Positions 3,729 through 14,067 are shown, counted from the first letter of the stretch. The stretch: DNA of 14,067 bases from Candidatus Bathyarchaeia archaeon (GCA_050012755.1 JBEKGO010000047.1:1-14067), one strand, 5' to 3'. Program-made: numbers and translations. The notes: a model not told the origin generated them from the letters alone.

Positions 3729-4592
3729 CTATAAATCCAACGCTGGGACAGTTTTTCCGGGTATAGTTTTTCGTTCAGTTATGTCTCGGATTAGGGCTAT
3801 GGAATACAAACGATTGTTTTCTTCAAAAACTGACGCGTGCATTTCAACAGTTCTCTCTTCGCCTGAACCATTTTTAAGAGGCAGTCTAATTTTCTTTCCA
3901 ACATGTTTACCTTCATTTTGGGATGCAAATTTCCTGATTCCCTCAAGCACATATTGCTTCGATGCTTTTGGAAATTGCTGGCTGAATCTTTCAAAGAAAA
4001 CCTGGCCAATCACTTCTCTTGTGCATCTAAACATTTGTAGCGCGGCTTCGTTCAGGTTTGTTATTTTTCCGTCGTCATCTATTACGATGATGGCGTCGCT
4101 TGATGCTTCAAAGATTGCGCGGAACCGCGCCTCGCTTTGTTTTGCAAGTTCTTGCGCCTTCGCATTGTCTGCAGCCTGTTCAATACTGGATGCGAGTTCC
4201 GTATAAACTGCCTCGGGATCCCCATTCTTGTTCAAGTATCTGAACGCACCAAGGTTCAGTGCTTTGACTGCCACCTCCTCTCGACCCCTCCCTGTAAAAA
4301 GTATGAACGGCGGGCTTTTTGCAATCTTCTTTAATTCTTCAAGAAATTGGAGTCCGTTTTTTCCAGGCATTTCATAATCTGAAACAACAACGTCATAATG
4401 AAACTGCTTCAGTTTCTCGAAGGCTTCATAGACGGAGGCAGCTGTTTCAACCTTAATTTTACCATCCATTTCCAAAATTTGCTTGGAGACATTCAAAAAA
4501 GAGTCGTCGTCATCAACGTGCAAAACTCTCAAGAAACATTCAGTATCAGTTAACTTCAACTCAATTATTGGCCGAAAAGTTGTTTCAGCCAT
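3729..4592 (-). CDS. Response regulator, receiver (REC) plus PAS domain, no kinase or DNA-binding output
   Basis: VLHVDDDD, phosphoacceptor VVSDYEMPGKNG, FTGRG and YLNK; PAS FRAIFEASSDAIIVIDDDGKITNLNEAA...RDITERK. The start is uncertain (ATG 4592 preferred; ORF extends to 4667). Confidence 0.9.
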   Translation of the reverse strand: MAETTFRPIIELKLTDTECFLRVLHVDDDDSFLNVSKQILEMDGKIKVETAASVYEAFEKLKQFHYDVVVSDYEMPGKNGLQFLEELKKIAKSPPFILFTGRGREEVAVKALNLGAFRYLNKNGDPEAVYTELASSIEQAADNAKAQELAKQSEARFRAIFEASSDAIIVIDDDGKITNLNEAALQMFRCTREVIGQVFFERFSQQFPKASKQYVLEGIRKFASQNEGKHVGKKIRLPLKNGSGEERTVEMHASVFEENNRLYSIALIRDITERKTIPGKTVPALDL

Positions 4593-5263
4593 TTGAGTTC
4601 CCGCTTCTAGGAACAGGTTGTCAGAGTTAGTTCTCTGTAGTTGTGTTGTACTGTTCATTTGTTGCACTCTGCTACATTAAGCCACTATCGCAAGTCTTAA
4701 TATATACGTTATTTTGATATTCGACATATTATAGAATATGATATATTCCCAAAACTGACATATGCTCTTGCTGCACACGTATTGCTGTTTATATATCGGT
4801 TCTCTTAAACGCTACGTTTCTATGGGCTCTACACAAAAAACCTAATGAGCGATGCCTGCAAGGGTGTTTTTCTCTATTGGCTCAACAAAACATGTTATGA
4901 TTTGGTAGTCTCTAAATACCTGCCTCAGGCAGAATAGAAACCTCTTGTTGTTTTTCTGGAAATATTGCGTTTTTCGAAATATCCCTTATATGCTTTTTCG
5001 CTGCTTGCATGAATAAAGAAGAAAAAAGAGGAGAAAGGGATGGCTTCAAATTTACATTTGAAGGAAAATTTGAGAGAGCGTTTTGTTGGTTGGGGCCATT
5101 CTGCTTGTTTTCGTCTAAATTTCACGGACTTAAATAGAAAAAACCTAAAGGAAGCTACACCGCAAAATGGTGGCTCTCTTGGGAGAGGGGTAAGCAAGGG
5201 GTTTGAAATGTAGTTAGGGTTCTCTTTTCATATCCACTTCCGTCAGGAGGGGTTTTTTAGTGC

Positions 5264-5333: not shown

Positions 5334-5645
5334 TTGGGCAAGAATCGTGATCGAATAAGTATTATTGCTGCAATTTTGGAAGCTGCAAATTCAGGGTCAA
5401 CTAAGACACGCATAATGTTTAATGCGAATTTGAGTTTCATGCTTCTGGAAAAATACCTCAGCGTAAGTGTTAGCGCTGGTTTTGTTAGAGTTGAAGGCCC
5501 AATCTACAAGTTAACCGTGCGCGGTCAAGAATACCTAAAACAGTACAAACTCTTTGAGGAACGCTACATAAGAGCATCAAAAAGACTTGAAGCAACTACT
5601 CCTGCCTCTCAGTACTTTAGGGATGTAAGCGCATCGTGGATCTGA
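5334..5645 (+). CDS. Archaeal winged helix-turn-helix protein (HTH_45-like); C-terminus possibly not original
   Basis: RDRISIIAAILEAANSGSTKTRIMFNANLSF...KYL...YKLTVRGQEYL is the typical small archaeal wHTH pattern. The last 69 bp overlap the antisense radical SAM gene. Confidence 0.85.
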   Translation: MGKNRDRISIIAAILEAANSGSTKTRIMFNANLSFMLLEKYLSVSVSAGFVRVEGPIYKLTVRGQEYLKQYKLFEERYIRASKRLEATTPASQYFRDVSASWI

Positions 5646-6662
5646 ACCCAGAATATCGCCTGTATAAAAAAGCGCTGACGATCGGCAGCCTCCACAAATT
5701 TCGCGGTATTCACAAACGCCGCATTTGCCTTTCAGATTGTTTTTATCTTTAGCTTTATTGAAAAACTCGCTGCTTTGCATTTCCGCCCATATTTGCTTAA
5801 GCGATTTATCTTTGATGTTTCCAAGTCTGTAGGCGTCATTGTAGCTGCAAGGTATTACATCGCCATTTTCTGCAACACTCATGAATTTGCCAAAGAAACA
5901 TCTGCCTAAAAAGAAGTTGTTATACCAGTTTTCAAAGTCAGGCATTCCTCGCTGTTTTGCAACGCGGGCGTAGAAGGGAATGTAAATGTTGATTCCAGGC
6001 TTGCCCTTGTATTCAGCAGTTAAATCATAGAGTCTGTTGCATACCCACTCGTACTGTTGCGGCGTGGGGTCGGCTTTGAGGGTGCTTTTGTCTTTGCTGT
6101 AGGGTATGAAACCGTGAAAGACCACCCAGCGGGCTTCGTATTTGCGGGCTAAATCAAGCACATGACGCATATCCTCCTCGTTAACGTTTGTGACTTTGCC
6201 AGCGTTGGCAAACGTGTAAACCAGGCAGTTTAACAGTTTCTCACGGGAAAACGTCTCAATCGCAGAAACCGCAGCGGCATAAGCACCTTTTCCACGGATG
6301 GCATCATTTGTTTTCTCTGAGCCGTCAATGCTGACTGAAATTTTAACTTCATTTTTAACGATGTTTTCAACGGCTTTCTGATCCATTAATCGTCCATCAG
6401 TTATGATACTGGCGTTTAAACCAAGCTTCCGAGCGTGACCGATGACTTCGAAAAGGTCTTTGCGCAGAAAAGGCTGCCCACCTGTGATTCCAAAGAAGCT
6501 TGCGCCAAAATCGTTTACTTGATCAACAATTTTTTTTGCGTCTGCAGTACCTAATTCGTCTGCAACTGCTGTTTTACATGCTGAAATACAGTGAACGCAA
6601 TTGCTTTCACATGCGAATGTGCATCGCCAAGGAACGATAAACAAGGGACCTTTATTTTTCAA
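5577..6662 (-). CDS. Radical SAM/SPASM domain protein (PqqE/AhbD/NirJ-like superfamily)
   Basis: CxxxCxxC (CESNCVHC), TGGQP and SVSIDG; SPASM cysteines GRCFFG...VIPC...CGVCEYREICGGCR...DPRC; GGAG 9 nt upstream of the TTG start. Confidence 0.93.
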   Translation of the reverse strand: MKNKGPLFIVPWRCTFACESNCVHCISACKTAVADELGTADAKKIVDQVNDFGASFFGITGGQPFLRKDLFEVIGHARKLGLNASIITDGRLMDQKAVENIVKNEVKISVSIDGSEKTNDAIRGKGAYAAAVSAIETFSREKLLNCLVYTFANAGKVTNVNEEDMRHVLDLARKYEARWVVFHGFIPYSKDKSTLKADPTPQQYEWVCNRLYDLTAEYKGKPGINIYIPFYARVAKQRGMPDFENWYNNFFLGRCFFGKFMSVAENGDVIPCSYNDAYRLGNIKDKSLKQIWAEMQSSEFFNKAKDKNNLKGKCGVCEYREICGGCRSSALFYTGDILGSDPRCAYIPKVLRGRSSCFKSF

Positions 6663-9078: not shown

Positions 9079-9606
9079 TTGAAAATATTGGTAGTTTGTC
9101 AAAGCTTAGACCTCGCGGATAAGGAACTAGGAATTACCCCTGCGTGGTGGCAAATTCTTAAAGGATTACATGAAGTTGGCGCTGAAATCGTAGCGGTCCC
9201 TTACTTTAACAGAGCTGTTCAGTCGCTTTGGTGGACAACTTACGAAAACCCTAACCTTTGGAAAAATCGGTTATATAATAATGTCGAAAACCTTGCAACC
9301 TCATTGGGTTTGGCAAAGAACAAGATGGAATTTCGGCAAAAAAACCAGAAGCTTCTCAGTTTCTTAGCTGAGAAAGCTGTTGCAAAAAAATGGACTAAAT
9401 ACTTGGTTTCTGTAATTGAAAAAGAAGGCAATGTCGATGCTGTACTCGTTTTGACAGTACCCCTCAACCAGTTTGTAGGTGTTCCGTCATTAATCAAAAA
9501 GGAATTTGACATTCCTATTGTGTTCTACGATGGGGATACTCCAACAAGTTTGCCATCATACGGCGGGCTCTCACTTAGTTTCTACAACAATGCTGATCCT
9601 TTTTAG
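9079..9606 (+). pseudogene. Truncated glycosyltransferase (N-terminal GT-B half, CgeB/GT4-like)
   Basis: MKILVV start, TPAWWQILKGLHEVG, VDAVLVL and IPIVFYDGDTPTSLP; GGAG upstream of the TTG. It stops at 175 aa, with no nucleotide-binding C-terminal domain in the following sequence. Confidence 0.65.
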
Positions 9607-9848: not shown

Positions 9849-9989
9849 TTAGTATCTTCTTGGTGGTCTACGCTTTGAGTAGCACTCACGGCAATAAACT
9901 GGCCTGGTACCGTCTGGCTTGAAAGGAACTTCACATTCTTTTCCGCAGTCAGCGCAGGTTGCCTTGTGCATTTCTCTGTTATTATACAT
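9849..9989 (-). CDS. Stand-alone CxxC-x17-CxxC domain protein (TIGR04272-like), 46 aa (not in ORF track)
   Basis: MYNNREMHKATCADCGKECEVPFKPDGTRPVYCRECYSKRRPPRRY* with exactly 17 residues between the CxxC pairs; SD-like AGGAGTTGA upstream; minus-strand T-rich tract at ~9797-9817. Confidence 0.93.
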   Translation of the reverse strand: MYNNREMHKATCADCGKECEVPFKPDGTRPVYCRECYSKRRPPRRY

Positions 9990-10059
9990 TCGCTATTTCA
10001 ACTCCTACTATGTTGGATGTGCAAAAAATTACTTTTACACGACCTTTTATCTTGTTCTC

Positions 10060-10078
10060 CATCCTTATAAATTGGATG
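10060..10078 (-). promoter_or_regulatory. TATA box for the CxxC-x17-CxxC gene, flanked by a 5-bp inverted repeat
   Basis: Minus-strand TTTATAAG at 10064-10071 inside CATCC...GGATG; implies a leader of roughly 50 nt. Confidence 0.5.
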
Positions 10079-10338
10079 CTTCCATTTTCCTGATTAACAT
10101 CAAATTGCTATGCCACAGAATTCCTTGACAGGAAAAAATGAAAACCCAAATTTCTGAAAGTCAACGTGATCATTAATTTTCACTTAATTTCTCTAAAAAC
10201 GGCCTGAAGAAGCTTTTTTTTATAGTCACACTAATATAGGTACTTTCGATATAATGTAGGCATTCGATATTGAGAGAAAGTACAAATCACTTTGAACCTT
10301 GCTTTTTCTCGACTTATACATGACAAGAGAGAGGGAAT

Positions 10339-10989
10339 TTGAGACAGAAAAAATCAACTTTAGGGGAGCACATTGCGCTTCTTTCGGTAAAACATAACAT
10401 TTACCCCTCTGAAGTTTTCCAAGCACTAATAAAAGCAAGACATAACGAAACAGCTGTCTGCGGGGCTCTTGAGGTTGAATACCGCGGCAAGGTTAAAGAT
10501 GAAATAATTTTTCTGATAAAGAAAGAGAATCGCGCTGTTGCTCAATTCAGGGTTGATGAACAATTTCTGTTAAGAAAAGATAATCCTTTTGAAAGTTGGA
10601 TGAGCACCGATAAAATAACCAAGAAAATCGCTAAACAAAATACAGAATCAGTTTTCACAGCGGTTAATGCTTTGAGAGCAGGTATGAAACGAGTTAATGT
10701 TAAGGCAGAGGTTCTTGAGATTCCTAAGCCAGTTCAAGTTCACACTCAATTTGGCAACACCGTCATGGTAGTCAACGCTTTAGTTCAAGATGATACAGGA
10801 AAAATCAAGCTTTGTCTCTGGGAAGGACAAATAAATTCAATTACGGTTGGAGAAAATATAGAAATTAAGAATGCTCATGTGTGTGTTTTTAGGGGTGAGA
10901 GGCAATTGCGTCTTGGCAAAAAAGGAGTCCTAAGCGCGTTACAAAATCCTGCCGAAGCTCTGAAGCAACAAGTGGCAACAGCCTCATGA
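10339..10989 (+). CDS. Single-stranded nucleic-acid-binding OB-fold protein (crenarchaeal SSB/RPA-like) with an extra ~100-aa N-terminal domain
   Basis: VNALRAGMKRVNVKAEVLE...DDTGKIKLCLW...GENIEIKNAHVCVFRGERQLRLGKKG parallels the Sulfolobus SSB OB fold (DETGRVKLTLW, FKGQVQL); GAGGGA upstream of the TTG. Confidence 0.88.
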   Translation: MRQKKSTLGEHIALLSVKHNIYPSEVFQALIKARHNETAVCGALEVEYRGKVKDEIIFLIKKENRAVAQFRVDEQFLLRKDNPFESWMSTDKITKKIAKQNTESVFTAVNALRAGMKRVNVKAEVLEIPKPVQVHTQFGNTVMVVNALVQDDTGKIKLCLWEGQINSITVGENIEIKNAHVCVFRGERQLRLGKKGVLSALQNPAEALKQQVATAS

Positions 10990-11090
10990 AATAAGGCGAC
11001 TGCCTTCAGTTATTTTCCTTTGCAAGAGGACTATTTTTATAGCGGAATTAAGCATTCCATTGAAGAAAACAACAGAAGGAACATTACTGG

Positions 11091-11747
11091 TTGACAGTTA
11101 TCGTTGATGACGCAGGCAGCGGCGACCTACTTTATGGCGTTGTGGTTGGCGCTTACCGAGAAGAAACAGGCGAATTCAAATATGACCTCATAGACGTAAG
11201 ATTCTATCAAGAAATCTTTCGAGAAAAAGAATACCTGCAAGAATCATCACGTATCGTCTCCAAACTTGTCGCATACTTCAACCTTAAACCAGATGAAGCA
11301 ATCCACATTTGCCAAGGCTGCATCTTTGACGTAGCTGCTGAGGAACTCCGTAAAGTCTACGGTGAAGAACGAGTTAAACGTGTAAGAGTCGTCGGCGAAG
11401 CACAAAGATTAGTAGAAATCGCTTATTTAGACGAAATCCGCAATTTAGGCTATGAACCCTTAGCTGAACGTGAAGAAAAAAGGGGCAAAAGCTTTTTTCA
11501 TATGATGCGTTGGCTCAAAGACAAACCTGAAATGCTCCGATACGCAAAAACTGGATGGCCACGCCTGAAAAATTATCATTTATTTGAGCAGTTCCATGAA
11601 GAACCCGTCTACAATGCTGTGTGCAGCGATTGTGGTTGCGAATGTGAAGTTCCTTTTCAGCCTCATGCCGACCGACCTGTATATTGCCGAAAATGCTGGC
11701 CCGCTCATAGACCTCAAAATAATCACAAGAAAAAAGCGGCAAATTAA
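11091..11747 (+). CDS. Divergent RNase HII-like (RNase H fold) protein fused to a C-terminal CxxC-x17-CxxC finger
   Basis: N-terminal VIVDDAGSGDLLYGVVVG resembles RNase HII GIDEAGRGxxxGPxVV; KTGW near the domain end; C-terminal CSDC-x17-CRKC. TTTTATA at 11035-11041. Confidence 0.7.
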   Translation: MTVIVDDAGSGDLLYGVVVGAYREETGEFKYDLIDVRFYQEIFREKEYLQESSRIVSKLVAYFNLKPDEAIHICQGCIFDVAAEELRKVYGEERVKRVRVVGEAQRLVEIAYLDEIRNLGYEPLAEREEKRGKSFFHMMRWLKDKPEMLRYAKTGWPRLKNYHLFEQFHEEPVYNAVCSDCGCECEVPFQPHADRPVYCRKCWPAHRPQNNHKKKAAN

Positions 11748-12246: not shown

Positions 12247-12293
12247 CTTATAAGCAAAATTCACTCATGCACAAGGTCTCAACAAGGAGGCGA
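12247..12293 (+). promoter_or_regulatory. TATA box and strong Shine-Dalgarno for the 41-aa ORF
   Basis: CTTATAAG at 12247-12254; AGGAGGCGA at 12285-12293; ATG at 12303. Confidence 0.7.
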
Positions 12294-12302
12294 AAAAAAA
12301 AT

Positions 12303-12428
12303 ATGCTGAGTAGAGATTGCGACGGATGCACTTTGCTGCACATGTGCAGTGAACGCTACAGGCGCGTAAACAAAGACGAGAAAGTATATTGTCCAGACGG
12401 AACAGCACATCTGGTAGACCAAAACTAA
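12303..12428 (+). CDS. 41-aa Cys/His-rich microprotein, putative metal-binding (not in ORF track)
   Basis: MLSRDCDGCTLLHMCSERYRRVNKDEKVYCPDGTAHLVDQN*; has its own TATA, SD and downstream T-rich tract (CCAATTTTCTATTT). Confidence 0.8.
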   Translation: MLSRDCDGCTLLHMCSERYRRVNKDEKVYCPDGTAHLVDQN

Positions 12429-12516
12429 CCCTCCAATTTTCTATTTATCTCAATTATTTTTAGGCAAAGGCAAAAATGCATCCAGTTCTTAATTATGAAT
12501 TGCAAGGTTGAATTGT

Positions 12517-13047
12517 GTGGATAAAGCTACTTTCTTGATGTGGAGCCGAAAATACGATAAAAGTTTAGGTTGGCAGGCGCAGAAGGAACGGGAGTTGGGC
12601 GCTAGATTCCGAAAAATAAAAGCGTTAACCAAGACTGATTTGGCCCAAGTTGTTGAATGGAAGTTTAAAGATGAGCCTGAGAAAAAAACTCGGGTTTTAG
12701 ACTTAGTTTCGCGAAATGAAGAAGCAACGGTTAATCGCCTTTCAAGCCAAGCATTAAGCATTCCTTCTTGCGAAGATGGCTACCGAATGAACTGCCTCAC
12801 GCTCCTCGAAGGCGTCAACCCGGTCTTAGCCAGCGTTATCCTCGCATTCTTTGACCCCAAACAATACGCTATTTTTGATGTAGCTGTTTGGAGGGCGCTG
12901 CTTGGGAATCCCCCGCCTAACTTGTTGACAACTCAGAATTACCTAAAACTGCTCGAGGCAATCAGGAAAACTGCGGCTAAACAAAACCTAGATGTAAGAG
13001 TAATCGACAAGGCACTCTACAAGAAAAGCTTTGACGAACTCAGGTGA
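12517..13047 (+). CDS. HhH-GPD-like (DNA glycosylase superfamily-like) protein
   Basis: LTLLEGVNPVLASVIL (HhH-like) followed by YAIFDVAVWRAL (conserved Asp), plus VVEWK and terminal VRVIDKALY. GTG 12517 is preceded by AGGTTGA; the ORF track starts at 12508. Confidence 0.65.
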   Translation: MDKATFLMWSRKYDKSLGWQAQKERELGARFRKIKALTKTDLAQVVEWKFKDEPEKKTRVLDLVSRNEEATVNRLSSQALSIPSCEDGYRMNCLTLLEGVNPVLASVILAFFDPKQYAIFDVAVWRALLGNPPPNLLTTQNYLKLLEAIRKTAAKQNLDVRVIDKALYKKSFDELR

Positions 13048-13051
13048 TAGG

Positions 13052-13672
13052 TTAGAGATTTTTGGTCACCTTTTTTAGTCTTGCGAGTTGCGAGGCTGTC
13101 ATTTCTGGTTTTCTAGCTTCGATGATGTTGAGGATTTGCTGTTTGTTTTCGGCATCGATGGCGGGTAAGATGTTTTCCGCATGCATGGGTACATCGCGTG
13201 GAATATACTTTTTCAATTGCTCCATAAGGATAGGGAAGATTTTCTGCCTGTAAGTTTTGTCTGCAGCGGCGACTTTGGCGAGGGCTTTTGTGCCCCATAC
13301 TACAGTGATTAGGGTGCCTTTTTCCAAGGTGCTTTTGACTTCGTTGAGTTTGGCGTAGATTTCTCTTGGTTTTTTGTCTGCGATGGTTGCGAGGGCTATC
13401 ATGGCGCCCCAAACCATGCGATTATTCTTGCTTTGAAGCAAGGCTAGAAAGTCAGGGGCGTAGTCTACTATAAGGTCGGGTTTCAAGTAGCTGATTTCGT
13501 AAAGCACTTTAAGGCAGTCACTTTGAACGTTTTTGTTTTTATGCTGCAAATTCTGAGCGATTTCTTTAATGCCTTCCTTGTTTTCTGTTTGGACAAGCTC
13601 TCTAGCGAGTTGTTGATTGGGAACTTCATCACGCCTATTTTGAAAAAAAGCAATCCTGTTTAGGACAGACAT
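13052..13672 (-). CDS. HEAT/ARM-repeat protein
   Basis: All-helical repeats (NVQSDCLKVLYEI, LLQSKNNRMVWGAMIALATIA). ATG 13672 has AGGTG upstream and TTATATAT at ~13710-13717. Confidence 0.8.
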   Translation of the reverse strand: MSVLNRIAFFQNRRDEVPNQQLARELVQTENKEGIKEIAQNLQHKNKNVQSDCLKVLYEISYLKPDLIVDYAPDFLALLQSKNNRMVWGAMIALATIADKKPREIYAKLNEVKSTLEKGTLITVVWGTKALAKVAAADKTYRQKIFPILMEQLKKYIPRDVPMHAENILPAIDAENKQQILNIIEARKPEMTASQLARLKKVTKNL

Positions 13673-13776
13673 ACGACACTGCACCTGTAAACCACTAAAT
13701 TGCGAGCCATATATAAGCTATCGAGTCTTGAAAAAACGTAGTCAAAAAAGCAAAGTTCAATGTACTTAGATTTAGT

Positions 13777-14067
13777 AGCGGTGGATCACTGTGGTTTGAC
13801 GCCCAGACTCCGCCTGGAGCATCCAAGCCCTACGCTCTTACCCGCACCCCCTTGAGCGCATAACGTCCAAACTTAGGTTGCTCTCTCCCGAGCCTAGCCA
13901 AGTTCGCCTGGTGAACAACGAAACAACTCCCCTACGGAAGCTGCTCATTGACCGCCAGCCCCAAAGGACGGATAGTCAATGTTTCGGAAATGAAGATCCA
14001 AACGGCCTTCGGCGCCTCATCCGCAGATGTCAGCCCGTCGTATAGAGGGTTTACGGTACAATGGACC
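13777..14067 (-). ncRNA. ffs: Archaeal signal recognition particle RNA (7S/SRP RNA), 5' end beyond the window
   Basis: Helix 8 SRP54-binding motif UAGG-CUC-GGGA-GAG-AGCA (13874-13896); helix 6 GCAGCUUCC-GUAG-GGGAGUUGU (13923-13944); Alu-domain UGUA turn (14057-14060); long helix 5 pairing; oligo-T downstream (13744-13749). Confidence 0.92.

Follow-up and report, generated by a model that had tools for sequence, protein, structure and literature searches.

The locus and its genes

We analysed a stretch of DNA of 14,067 nucleotides from Candidatus Bathyarchaeia archaeon (GCA_050012755.1, JBEKGO010000047.1:1-14067), referred to below as the window. Its positions 9,849 to 11,747 hold three genes: one for a free zinc finger of 46 residues, a divergent one for a protein resembling single-stranded DNA-binding proteins (SSB-like), and one for an RNase H-like protein that carries a second copy of the finger near its end. 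An initial annotation of this DNA had presented the three as a candidate nucleic-acid module, each gene apparently having its own TATA box. All three open reading frames (ORFs) are present with the positions and orientations that it gave, and a conserved TATA-like box was indeed found for each of them. The features are the following.

9849..9989, minus strand: free finger ORF, 46 aa, a CxxC-x17-CxxC treble-clef zinc finger (TIGR04272/PF23477) with a basic C-terminus
9998..10006, minus strand: Shine-Dalgarno (SD) site of the finger gene, AGGAGTTGA, the same in 53 of 53 aligned leaders
10019..10040, minus strand: hairpin in the 5′ leader of the finger gene, 9-11 bp, with a purine-tract arm and a U-tract arm
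10064..10071, minus strand: TATA box of the finger gene, TTTATAAG, 55-62 nt ahead of the SD in 57 finger genes
10231..10239, plus strand: TATA variant of the SSB-like gene, TAATATA, also ahead of aIF-1A genes in related loci
10272..10310, plus strand: stem in the 5′ leader of the SSB-like gene, 9-10 bp, with a variable loop of 15-30 nt; the motif also precedes aIF-1A
10327..10335, plus strand: SD-like site of the SSB-like gene, purine-rich, able to pair with the stem's 3′ arm
10339..10989, plus strand: SSB-like ORF, 216 aa, with a ~104-aa N-terminal domain and one crenarchaeal-type OB (oligonucleotide/oligosaccharide-binding) fold
11034..11041, plus strand: TATA box of the RNase H-like gene, TTTTATA-type, ~50-55 nt ahead of the start
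11091..11747, plus strand: RNase H-like ORF, 218 aa
11091..11594, plus strand: predicted type-2 RNase H-fold domain (D6, D7, GxG, C74, Q105, E109, W141, KTGW)
11622..11696, plus strand: fused CxxC-x17-CxxC finger, Cys178-Cys202 of the RNase H-like protein

The finger and SSB-like genes form the conserved unit

The closest homologues and loci came from Bathyarchaeia, Bathy6 and Bathycorpusculum records included. Synteny was scored in the best 80 of 274 relatives in GTDB genomes, the RNase H-like protein being 83–95% identical in this sample. Within 10 kb of the RNase H-like gene, finger and SSB-like genes were both present in 44 loci, the finger gene only in 12, the SSB-like gene only in 1, and neither in 23; among the 74 loci whose upstream sequence extends to 5 kb or more, the same classes held 42, 11, 1 and 20. 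Finger and SSB-like genes were divergent neighbours in 44 of the 45 loci holding the latter, with a start-to-start distance of 276–389 bp in 43 of these 44. The gap between the SSB-like and RNase H-like genes ranged from 731 to 9948 bp; the two abutted (at most 925 bp start to start) in 22 loci, and a minimum of 10 changes in the SSB link was counted over the tree of 74 loci. Sequences filling this junction were a third finger paralogue (18 loci), genes for membrane or secreted proteins, and phage head-tail genes (10 loci, with fragments in 3 more). Three genes downstream of the RNase H-like gene were linked to it in 44, 62 and 63 of the 80 loci, so that linkage within the trio does not exceed that of the surrounding genes.

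We concluded that the tight unit is the divergent finger–SSB pair, not the trio. The linkage of the three genes, on which the initial annotation relied, does occur in the 44 loci, but it is not obligatory: an obligatory trio is ruled out by this proportion, by the variable SSB–RNase H gap and by the changes on the tree. An operon of the SSB-like and RNase H-like genes is likewise rejected, because the latter has its own TATA box and SD in every context, with or without the SSB-like gene upstream. The initial annotation had itself cautioned that this is a neighbourhood rather than a proven operon.

A covarying hairpin in the finger-gene leader

The TATA box, the 55–62 nt spacing, the invariant SD and a hairpin in between were found in all 56 free-finger genes of the related loci as well as in the window, transcription starts being placed from the position of the TATA box only. 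The hairpin was aligned in 53 of the 57 leaders, four near-duplicates being dropped. In this alignment 93.5% of the cells were paired, against 28–72% in slid controls, and 5 of the 11 pairs had changes on both sides, a covariation matched by none of 500 shuffles. The pairs comprised 444 Watson-Crick, 65 G-U, 4 A-C and 12 others, and this excess of G-U over A-C favours an RNA made from the transcribed strand over a DNA element. Folding of positions 10010–10047 gave a z of −4.9. A model of the hairpin recovered just the 57 known sites in 1.47 Mb, plus 3 matches with E above 1, and the covariance models of Rfam 15 gave no match to it (best E 3.7). The finger leader is thus a covarying, strand-specific 5′-leader hairpin, new in this analysis. 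Synonymous divergence was 0.24 in the free finger gene, versus 0.64–0.75 in the SSB-like and RNase H-like genes, which suggests high expression or a constraint at the RNA level.

A leader element common to the SSB-like and aIF-1A genes

A different stem, with a variable loop, precedes the SSB-like gene. In 17 of the 80 loci the genes for aIF-1A (PF01176) and L35Ae (PF01247) lie ~1 kb beyond the finger gene, and the aIF-1A genes have the same promoter variant and stem as the SSB-like genes. TAATATA was found upstream of 44 of 45 SSB-like and 18 of 18 aIF-1A genes, and 0 to 2 times in each of eight other gene sets. The stem was found in 41 of 45 and 18 of 18 leaders respectively, and in none of the 80, 57, 20, 32, 19, 28, 25 and 29 members of the eight other sets, some of which consist only of the genes found by the motif used. 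Five shuffles gave 0 to 2 matches each. Wobble pairs were again of one kind (52 G-U, 0 A-C). This shared element was absent in front of the RNase H-like gene (0 of 80 loci), and neither the first Rfam 15 scan nor a further one, up to E 1, placed the leaders in a known family of cis-regulatory RNA. Since the SSB-like gene shares both leader element and promoter variant with aIF-1A, the two genes are probably co-regulated after transcription. In one locus lacking aIF-1A, the promoter and stem lie beside L35Ae (L012:5211-5252, minus strand) and precede a small zinc-ribbon ORF, which in another locus (L078) follows aIF-1A.

In both kinds of leader the U-rich 3′ arm of the stem could pair with the SD instead (44 of 53 finger and 33 of 40 SSB leaders). 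This alternative fold is on average ~5 kcal/mol weaker than the main one, and switching of the leaders is possible. The computed accessibility of the SD is lower in the cold, which does not favour a simple cold thermometer; melting by a protein would be the likelier trigger.

Leaders of a comparable kind have been described. That of archaeal L7Ae, also structured and ahead of a small RNA-binding protein, is said to act in autoregulation. Bacterial csp mRNAs, in the part of PMC10684826 available to us (here and below, papers are cited from their available parts), likewise have a structured 5′ leader ahead of a small RNA-binding protein. Unlike these, the leaders reported here are short, 55–90 nt, and one element is common to the SSB-like and aIF-1A genes. 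The cold-induced genes of Pyrococcus are all leadered (PMC10746257). We found no description of these leaders, of the RNase H-like family or of the finger fusion in the literature within our reach, which excluded most subscription papers.

The free and fused fingers

Both genes carry the CxxC-x17-CxxC finger, as had been proposed: the free finger scored 73.7 bits with TIGR04272 (cut-off 36) and 73.4 bits with PF23477 (cut-off 27), and the fused one 54.6 and 53.6 bits. The free finger is strongly conserved, with a mean amino acid identity of 96% and a ratio of non-synonymous to synonymous changes (pN/pS) of 0.09 over 44 loci. Among the best 120 of its 418 longer homologues, 109 had two fingers, 2 had three and 9 had one. 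Outside the fingers these proteins contain 15.5% arginine, 13.7% glycine, 9.7% asparagine and 9.2% lysine, a composition typical of RNA-binding proteins, and no fusion to another annotated enzyme was seen among them. The nearest solved sequences to the free finger were LIM treble clefs (best E 3×10−4), and finger matches in 3 plasmid and 3 phage records bore uninformative names.

Eight CxxC-x17-CxxC proteins were detected in Methanosarcina mazei, two of which bind zinc according to inductively coupled plasma mass spectrometry, and heparin was used to purify these homologues; the available part of the source leaves their function open (PMC12704099). Two of the M. mazei proteins, A00184 and A01980 (TIGR04272/PF23477), share the motif of the window fingers, whose profile scores exceed the cut-offs. 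Several paralogues per genome are found in both cases, since a third copy occurs in 18 of our 80 loci and M. mazei has eight (PMC12704099). Distinct from known TIGR04272 proteins are the leader hairpin, the fixed divergent SSB partner and the fusion to an RNase H fold, none of which was found in the literature within our reach.

The third paralogue (PF23477; loci L023, L031 and L036 among the 18, e.g. L078:7712-7933) lies mostly between the SSB-like and RNase H-like genes. It is 98% identical over 17 loci (pN/pS 0.02) and has its own conserved leader with a purine tract and a U tract, in which folding is weaker and without strand bias.

The fusion of the finger to the RNase H-fold gene, also proposed at the outset, turned out to be constant in the clade: the fused finger was present in 79 of the 80 loci and in 116 of the 120 closest proteins, the four others being, as we read them, three frame-shifted and one truncated. 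Among 150 listed representatives of the family, it was absent from 86 of the 87 that are full-length. One clade has thus fixed a fusion that the RNase H-like family as a whole can do without. With a mean identity of 72% and a pN/pS of 0.21, the fused finger is under selection, less so than the rest of the protein. Locus L044 has, ~2250 bp downstream of the match, a further, unattached copy similar to the fused finger.

The initial annotation had also pointed to 17 nucleotides shared in inverted orientation by the two fingers. Positions 9922–9938 are the exact reverse complement of 11640–11656, and no other exact match in inverted orientation within the window is as long, the runner-up measuring 14 nt. 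The identity is real, but it goes no further than homology between oppositely oriented paralogues: the match consists of the codons for ECEVPF in both fingers, and adjoining synonymous sites differ. Runs of at least 17 nt were found in 2 of 56 free/fused pairs from the same genome (the window counted) versus 1.4% of 4504 cross-genome pairs. A functional inverted repeat is therefore ruled out, and so is gene conversion, because finger pairs from one genome are no more alike (identity 0.586) than pairs across genomes (0.594).

The SSB-like protein

The OB fold announced for the divergent gene was confirmed at residues ~109–199 (PF21473, 33.9 bits, cut-off 24), but a conserved N-terminal domain of ~104 aa had been overlooked. 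This domain belongs to no known family, its best Atlas match was 0.79, and none of the fold-search matches listed covered it. The closest protein to the OB fold was the SSB of S. solfataricus (E 4×10−12), and the top Foldseek match was 1o7i; the fold also matches RPA and hSSB1. Scores with the PRK06461 models were all far below cut-off (73 bits against 176 for PRK06461 itself).

The OB fold is 34–36% identical to the S. solfataricus and S. islandicus proteins (SsoSSB and SisSSB), and two of the three aromatics are kept here: W161 and F184, which correspond to W56 and F79, were present in 31 of 31 rows (31 of the 120 listed homologues being aligned). In contrast to SsoSSB and SisSSB, the protein has the N-terminal domain, lacks the acidic tail, and has Gln or His at the position of W75.

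The Saccharolobus SSB binds single-stranded RNA like single-stranded DNA (PMC5346138). It also rises at low temperature, melts RNA, melts RNA/DNA hybrids, and can replace the Csps of E. coli (PMC10684826).

The RNase H-like protein

The predicted model of this protein (pLDDT, the predicted local distance difference test, 94) has an RNase H fold with a helical C-terminal extension. Its top seven structural matches were all RNases H2 or H3 (Z 9.6–11.5, root-mean-square deviation 3.0–3.9, 139–154 residues aligned; next match, Z 7.7), and the best was an RNase H3 bound to an RNA/DNA hybrid. The initial label of RNase HII-like thus holds for the fold, but a sequence-level assignment to that family is rejected: residues 1–168 had no sequence match in Pfam, NCBIfam or the PDB, with nothing beyond E 1.5 (1eke). 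The RNase HII and HIII profiles (PF01351/NCBIfam) matched 0 of 98 and 0 of 93 members, hhalign aligned strands 1–2 only (probability 14.7%), and the Atlas RNase HII cluster scored 0.75. With 1764 relatives at 90% clustering and 190 clusters at 50% identity, this unnamed family matches no library searched.

Residues conserved in 93 aligned sequences of 21–40% identity were D6 (91), D7 (88), G9 (84), G11 (89), C74 (89), G76 (87), Q105 (84), E109 (89), W141 (89) and K153 (93). The GXG motif is present, X being mostly W or S, and the GRG motif is not. In the model, strand 1 contains D6 and D7, strand 4 ends with C74, and E109 is part of the helix after strand 5. The mapping of putative catalytic residues follows this secondary structure and PMC3985635, rather than a residue-level superposition; that source places the second catalytic residue (D, E or H) at the end of strand 4 and the third in the helix after strand 5, except in RNases H2 and H3. 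The canonical carboxylate set, DEDD or DEDE, would accordingly be replaced in the model by D6, D7, C74 and E109.

The likeness to RNases H2 and H3 extends from the fold to D-D-x-G-x-G-D, against D78-E79-x-G81-K82-G83-E84 in the RNase H3 of T. ammonificans, in which the active site is given as D78, E79, D180 and E206 plus the GXG motif (PMC4132731). The differences are an Asp for Glu at the second position, a Cys for Asp at strand 4, a KTGW motif of its own, and a third acid located in the C-terminal helix and not in the 3/10 helix. The N-terminal TBP-like (TATA-binding protein-like) domain of RNase H3 is absent, as the window protein begins at strand 1. From the model, the family is type-2 RNase H-like without being a member, and would have a D-D-C-E site if it cuts at all.

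It may be, then, that the third gene encodes no conventional two-metal RNase H, and rather a catalytically incomplete nucleic-acid-binding scaffold, or a protein using the conserved cysteine for another metal or chemistry. We regard this as a serious option, if somewhat improbable. A Cys ends strand 4 in 89 of 93 rows, at a position where D, E or H is listed, and Prp8 is named as keeping only the DD pair of strand 1 (PMC3985635); moreover, in 4 of the 80 loci a paralogue close to the gene has Ala at position 7. On the other hand, retention of D6, D7, E109, Q105 and K153 at such low identity is more than a dead scaffold usually needs, and E109, in the helix after strand 5, occupies the canonical third position (PMC3985635).

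Other variation in the family was as follows. The paralogue with Ala-7 is a second family member, ~27% identical, located at L060:8758-9330, L075:9326-9913, L078:6694-7305 and L079:8738-9325. An N-terminal extension of at least 60 aa was found in 12 of 87 relatives, and a conserved N-terminal domain of ~75 aa in P0284, P0287, P0288, P0299, P0304, P0313, P0323, P0326, P0347, P0357 and P0373. A TBP-like domain in these 11 N-extended relatives, suggested by a likeness to that of RNase H3, was rejected for want of a library match. Other Cys-rich tails end P0316, P0349 and P0376. A viral origin of the family was rejected on the phage collections searched, with no match in 50,697 phage records, 1 weak PHROG match among 24 members, and integrase-like folds only in a Foldseek check.

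Neighbouring genes

The phage head-tail cluster at the junction upstream of the RNase H-like gene is syntenic in L019, L027, L029, L041, L050, L063, L064, L069, L071 and L075 (e.g. L075:1013-8860), with fragments in L028, L042 and L045. It comprises genes for portal-like, connector, tail tube (PF18906), HK97-gp10 and YQBQ-like proteins, stops 120–1200 bp before the RNase H-like gene, and changes a minimum of 7 times over the tree of 74 loci. A provirus that recurs at one site and a domesticated element are both possible explanations; neither an attachment site nor a tRNA was seen at this end.

Downstream, positions 12267-12428 (plus strand) encode a small Cys/His-rich protein of no family, present in 62 of the 80 loci, mostly at 80–100% identity; in related loci a conserved palindrome-like sequence, possibly an operator, lies just ahead of the TATA box of this gene. 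It is followed by a 179-aa protein without Pfam match (12508-13047, plus strand; 63 of the 80 loci) and a HEAT-repeat protein (13052-13684, minus strand), which resemble DNA glycosylase-like and AlkD-like repair proteins. An archaeal signal recognition particle RNA (13779-14067, minus strand) is cut off by the window edge. The genes to the left of the finger gene differ from those of most related loci. They include a 175-aa ORF without family match (9079-9606, plus strand), placed after an NAD-dependent epimerase gene and presumably a truncated gene of the glycosyltransferase type. The window also encodes a receiver-PAS protein with no output domain at its end (3729-4667, minus strand), and has an HTH_45 gene that overlaps a radical SAM/SPASM gene at the latter's 3′ end (5334-6662).

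Interpretation

The reading that we prefer, and to which we give an even chance, is that the finger and the SSB-like protein form a leader-controlled, RNA-binding pair of chaperone type, together with aIF-1A, the RNase H-like protein being independent and carrying a locally gained copy of the finger. Single-stranded RNA would be the ligand of both proteins, which would serve as chaperones of RNA during cold or other stress. Each of their mRNAs would start with a stem, the U-rich 3′ arm of which could pair alternatively with the ribosome-binding site, so that synthesis of the finger, SSB and aIF-1A would probably be under common post-transcriptional control, exerted by temperature or through binding by one of the products. 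The RNase H-like protein would be a separately transcribed, strongly conserved nucleic-acid enzyme or binder, derived from RNases H2/H3 and with a D-D-C-E site, that gained the neighbouring finger in the ancestor of the clade, perhaps by local duplication, as an accessory nucleic-acid-binding domain. The signs of the RNA or stress role suggested by the initial annotation are indirect, namely the leader structures, the aIF-1A neighbourhood and the R/G-rich double-finger homologues.

Several observations weigh against this reading. The 80 loci are all close relatives (83–95% identity), and their counts are not independent. The pattern used to search for the stem was written after the SSB and aIF-1A leaders had been examined. 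In the SSB stem, 95.5% of the cells are paired yet no compensatory change was seen (40 of 44 leaders; a level reached by all 500 shuffles). In the finger leader, pairing of the anti-SD alternative amounts to 90.5%, with a covariation not above that of shuffles (161 of 500). A difference of no more than 3 kcal/mol between alternative and main folds was computed in just 11 of the 53 finger leaders and 8 of the 40 SSB leaders; the computed SD accessibility drops from 0.77 at 37°C to 0.52 at 4°C. Treble-clef fingers, to which LIM domains provide the closest solved sequences, can also bind proteins. As to the SSB-like protein, the W75 position holds a His in the window and mostly a Gln in homologues, and the N-terminal domain of ~104 aa is an extra, conserved in 363 relatives. 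Finally, in the available part of PMC10684826 the SSBs of Korarchaeota and Heimdallarchaeota are not active as chaperones, so that the OB fold alone does not settle a chaperone role.

Unrelated housekeeping genes might also be held together by slow rearrangement, with the SSB-like protein acting in DNA replication or repair, and the repeats being simple mRNA-stabilising stems, or DNA operators that a local promoter duplication has copied. We consider this unlikely. A DNA palindrome is at odds with the preference for G-U over A-C in both elements (65 vs 4 and 52 vs 0) and with loops of 15–30 nt, even if the SSB stem is nearly invariant and does not covary, and if the aIF-1A and SSB promoters, ~1.3 kb apart, could be copies one of the other. 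Gene order is broadly conserved, six neighbours being kept in 44–63 of the 80 loci, but the finger–SSB spacing is far tighter than that of SSB and RNase H, and the element is absent before eight other gene sets. That the OB fold matches RPA and hSSB1 too is compatible with a role on DNA.

A single system in which free finger, SSB and finger-tethered nuclease act on R-loops or RNA/DNA hybrids, with the finger as their shared targeting element, is improbable: the spread of the trio over the tree in its 44 loci, the 12 further loci that retain a free finger facing the RNase H-like gene, the purifying selection on the fused finger (pN/pS 0.21), the RNase H3–hybrid complex as best structural match and the melting of hybrids by the Saccharolobus SSB (PMC10684826) are outweighed by an SSB link changing at least 10 times over gaps of 731–9948 bp, with insertions of up to 9 kb, some of phage tail genes, by unrelated downstream genes that are equally syntenic, by the lack of the shared leader before the RNase H-like gene (0 of 80), by a finger that 86 of 87 family representatives do without and that is the least conserved part (72% vs 96% in the free finger), and by a canonical RNase H carboxylate set that is not intact. 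The three-part module proposed initially is thus the weaker part of the finding.

Extending the preferred reading of a leader-controlled chaperone pair, we tentatively, and with more doubt than confidence, envisage a post-transcriptional regulon in which switchable anti-SD stems would co-regulate the SSB-like protein, aIF-1A and TIGR04272 fingers, as a counterpart of the bacterial cold-shock response. Beside it would stand a widespread new branch of type-2 RNases H with Cys at the second catalytic position and swapped accessory domains, a zinc finger here and an N-terminal domain elsewhere. Each of the parts is a variant on a known kind. Biochemical work has an obvious target in the RNase H-like family, for which no library searched has a profile and whose site is both atypical and well conserved. 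How the crenarchaeal-type SSB rises in the cold is left open in the available part of PMC10684826, and the leaders provide short, exact elements together with candidate binding proteins that are testable in model hosts. If true, the regulon would give the orphan TIGR04272 family a role as RNA-binding chaperone.

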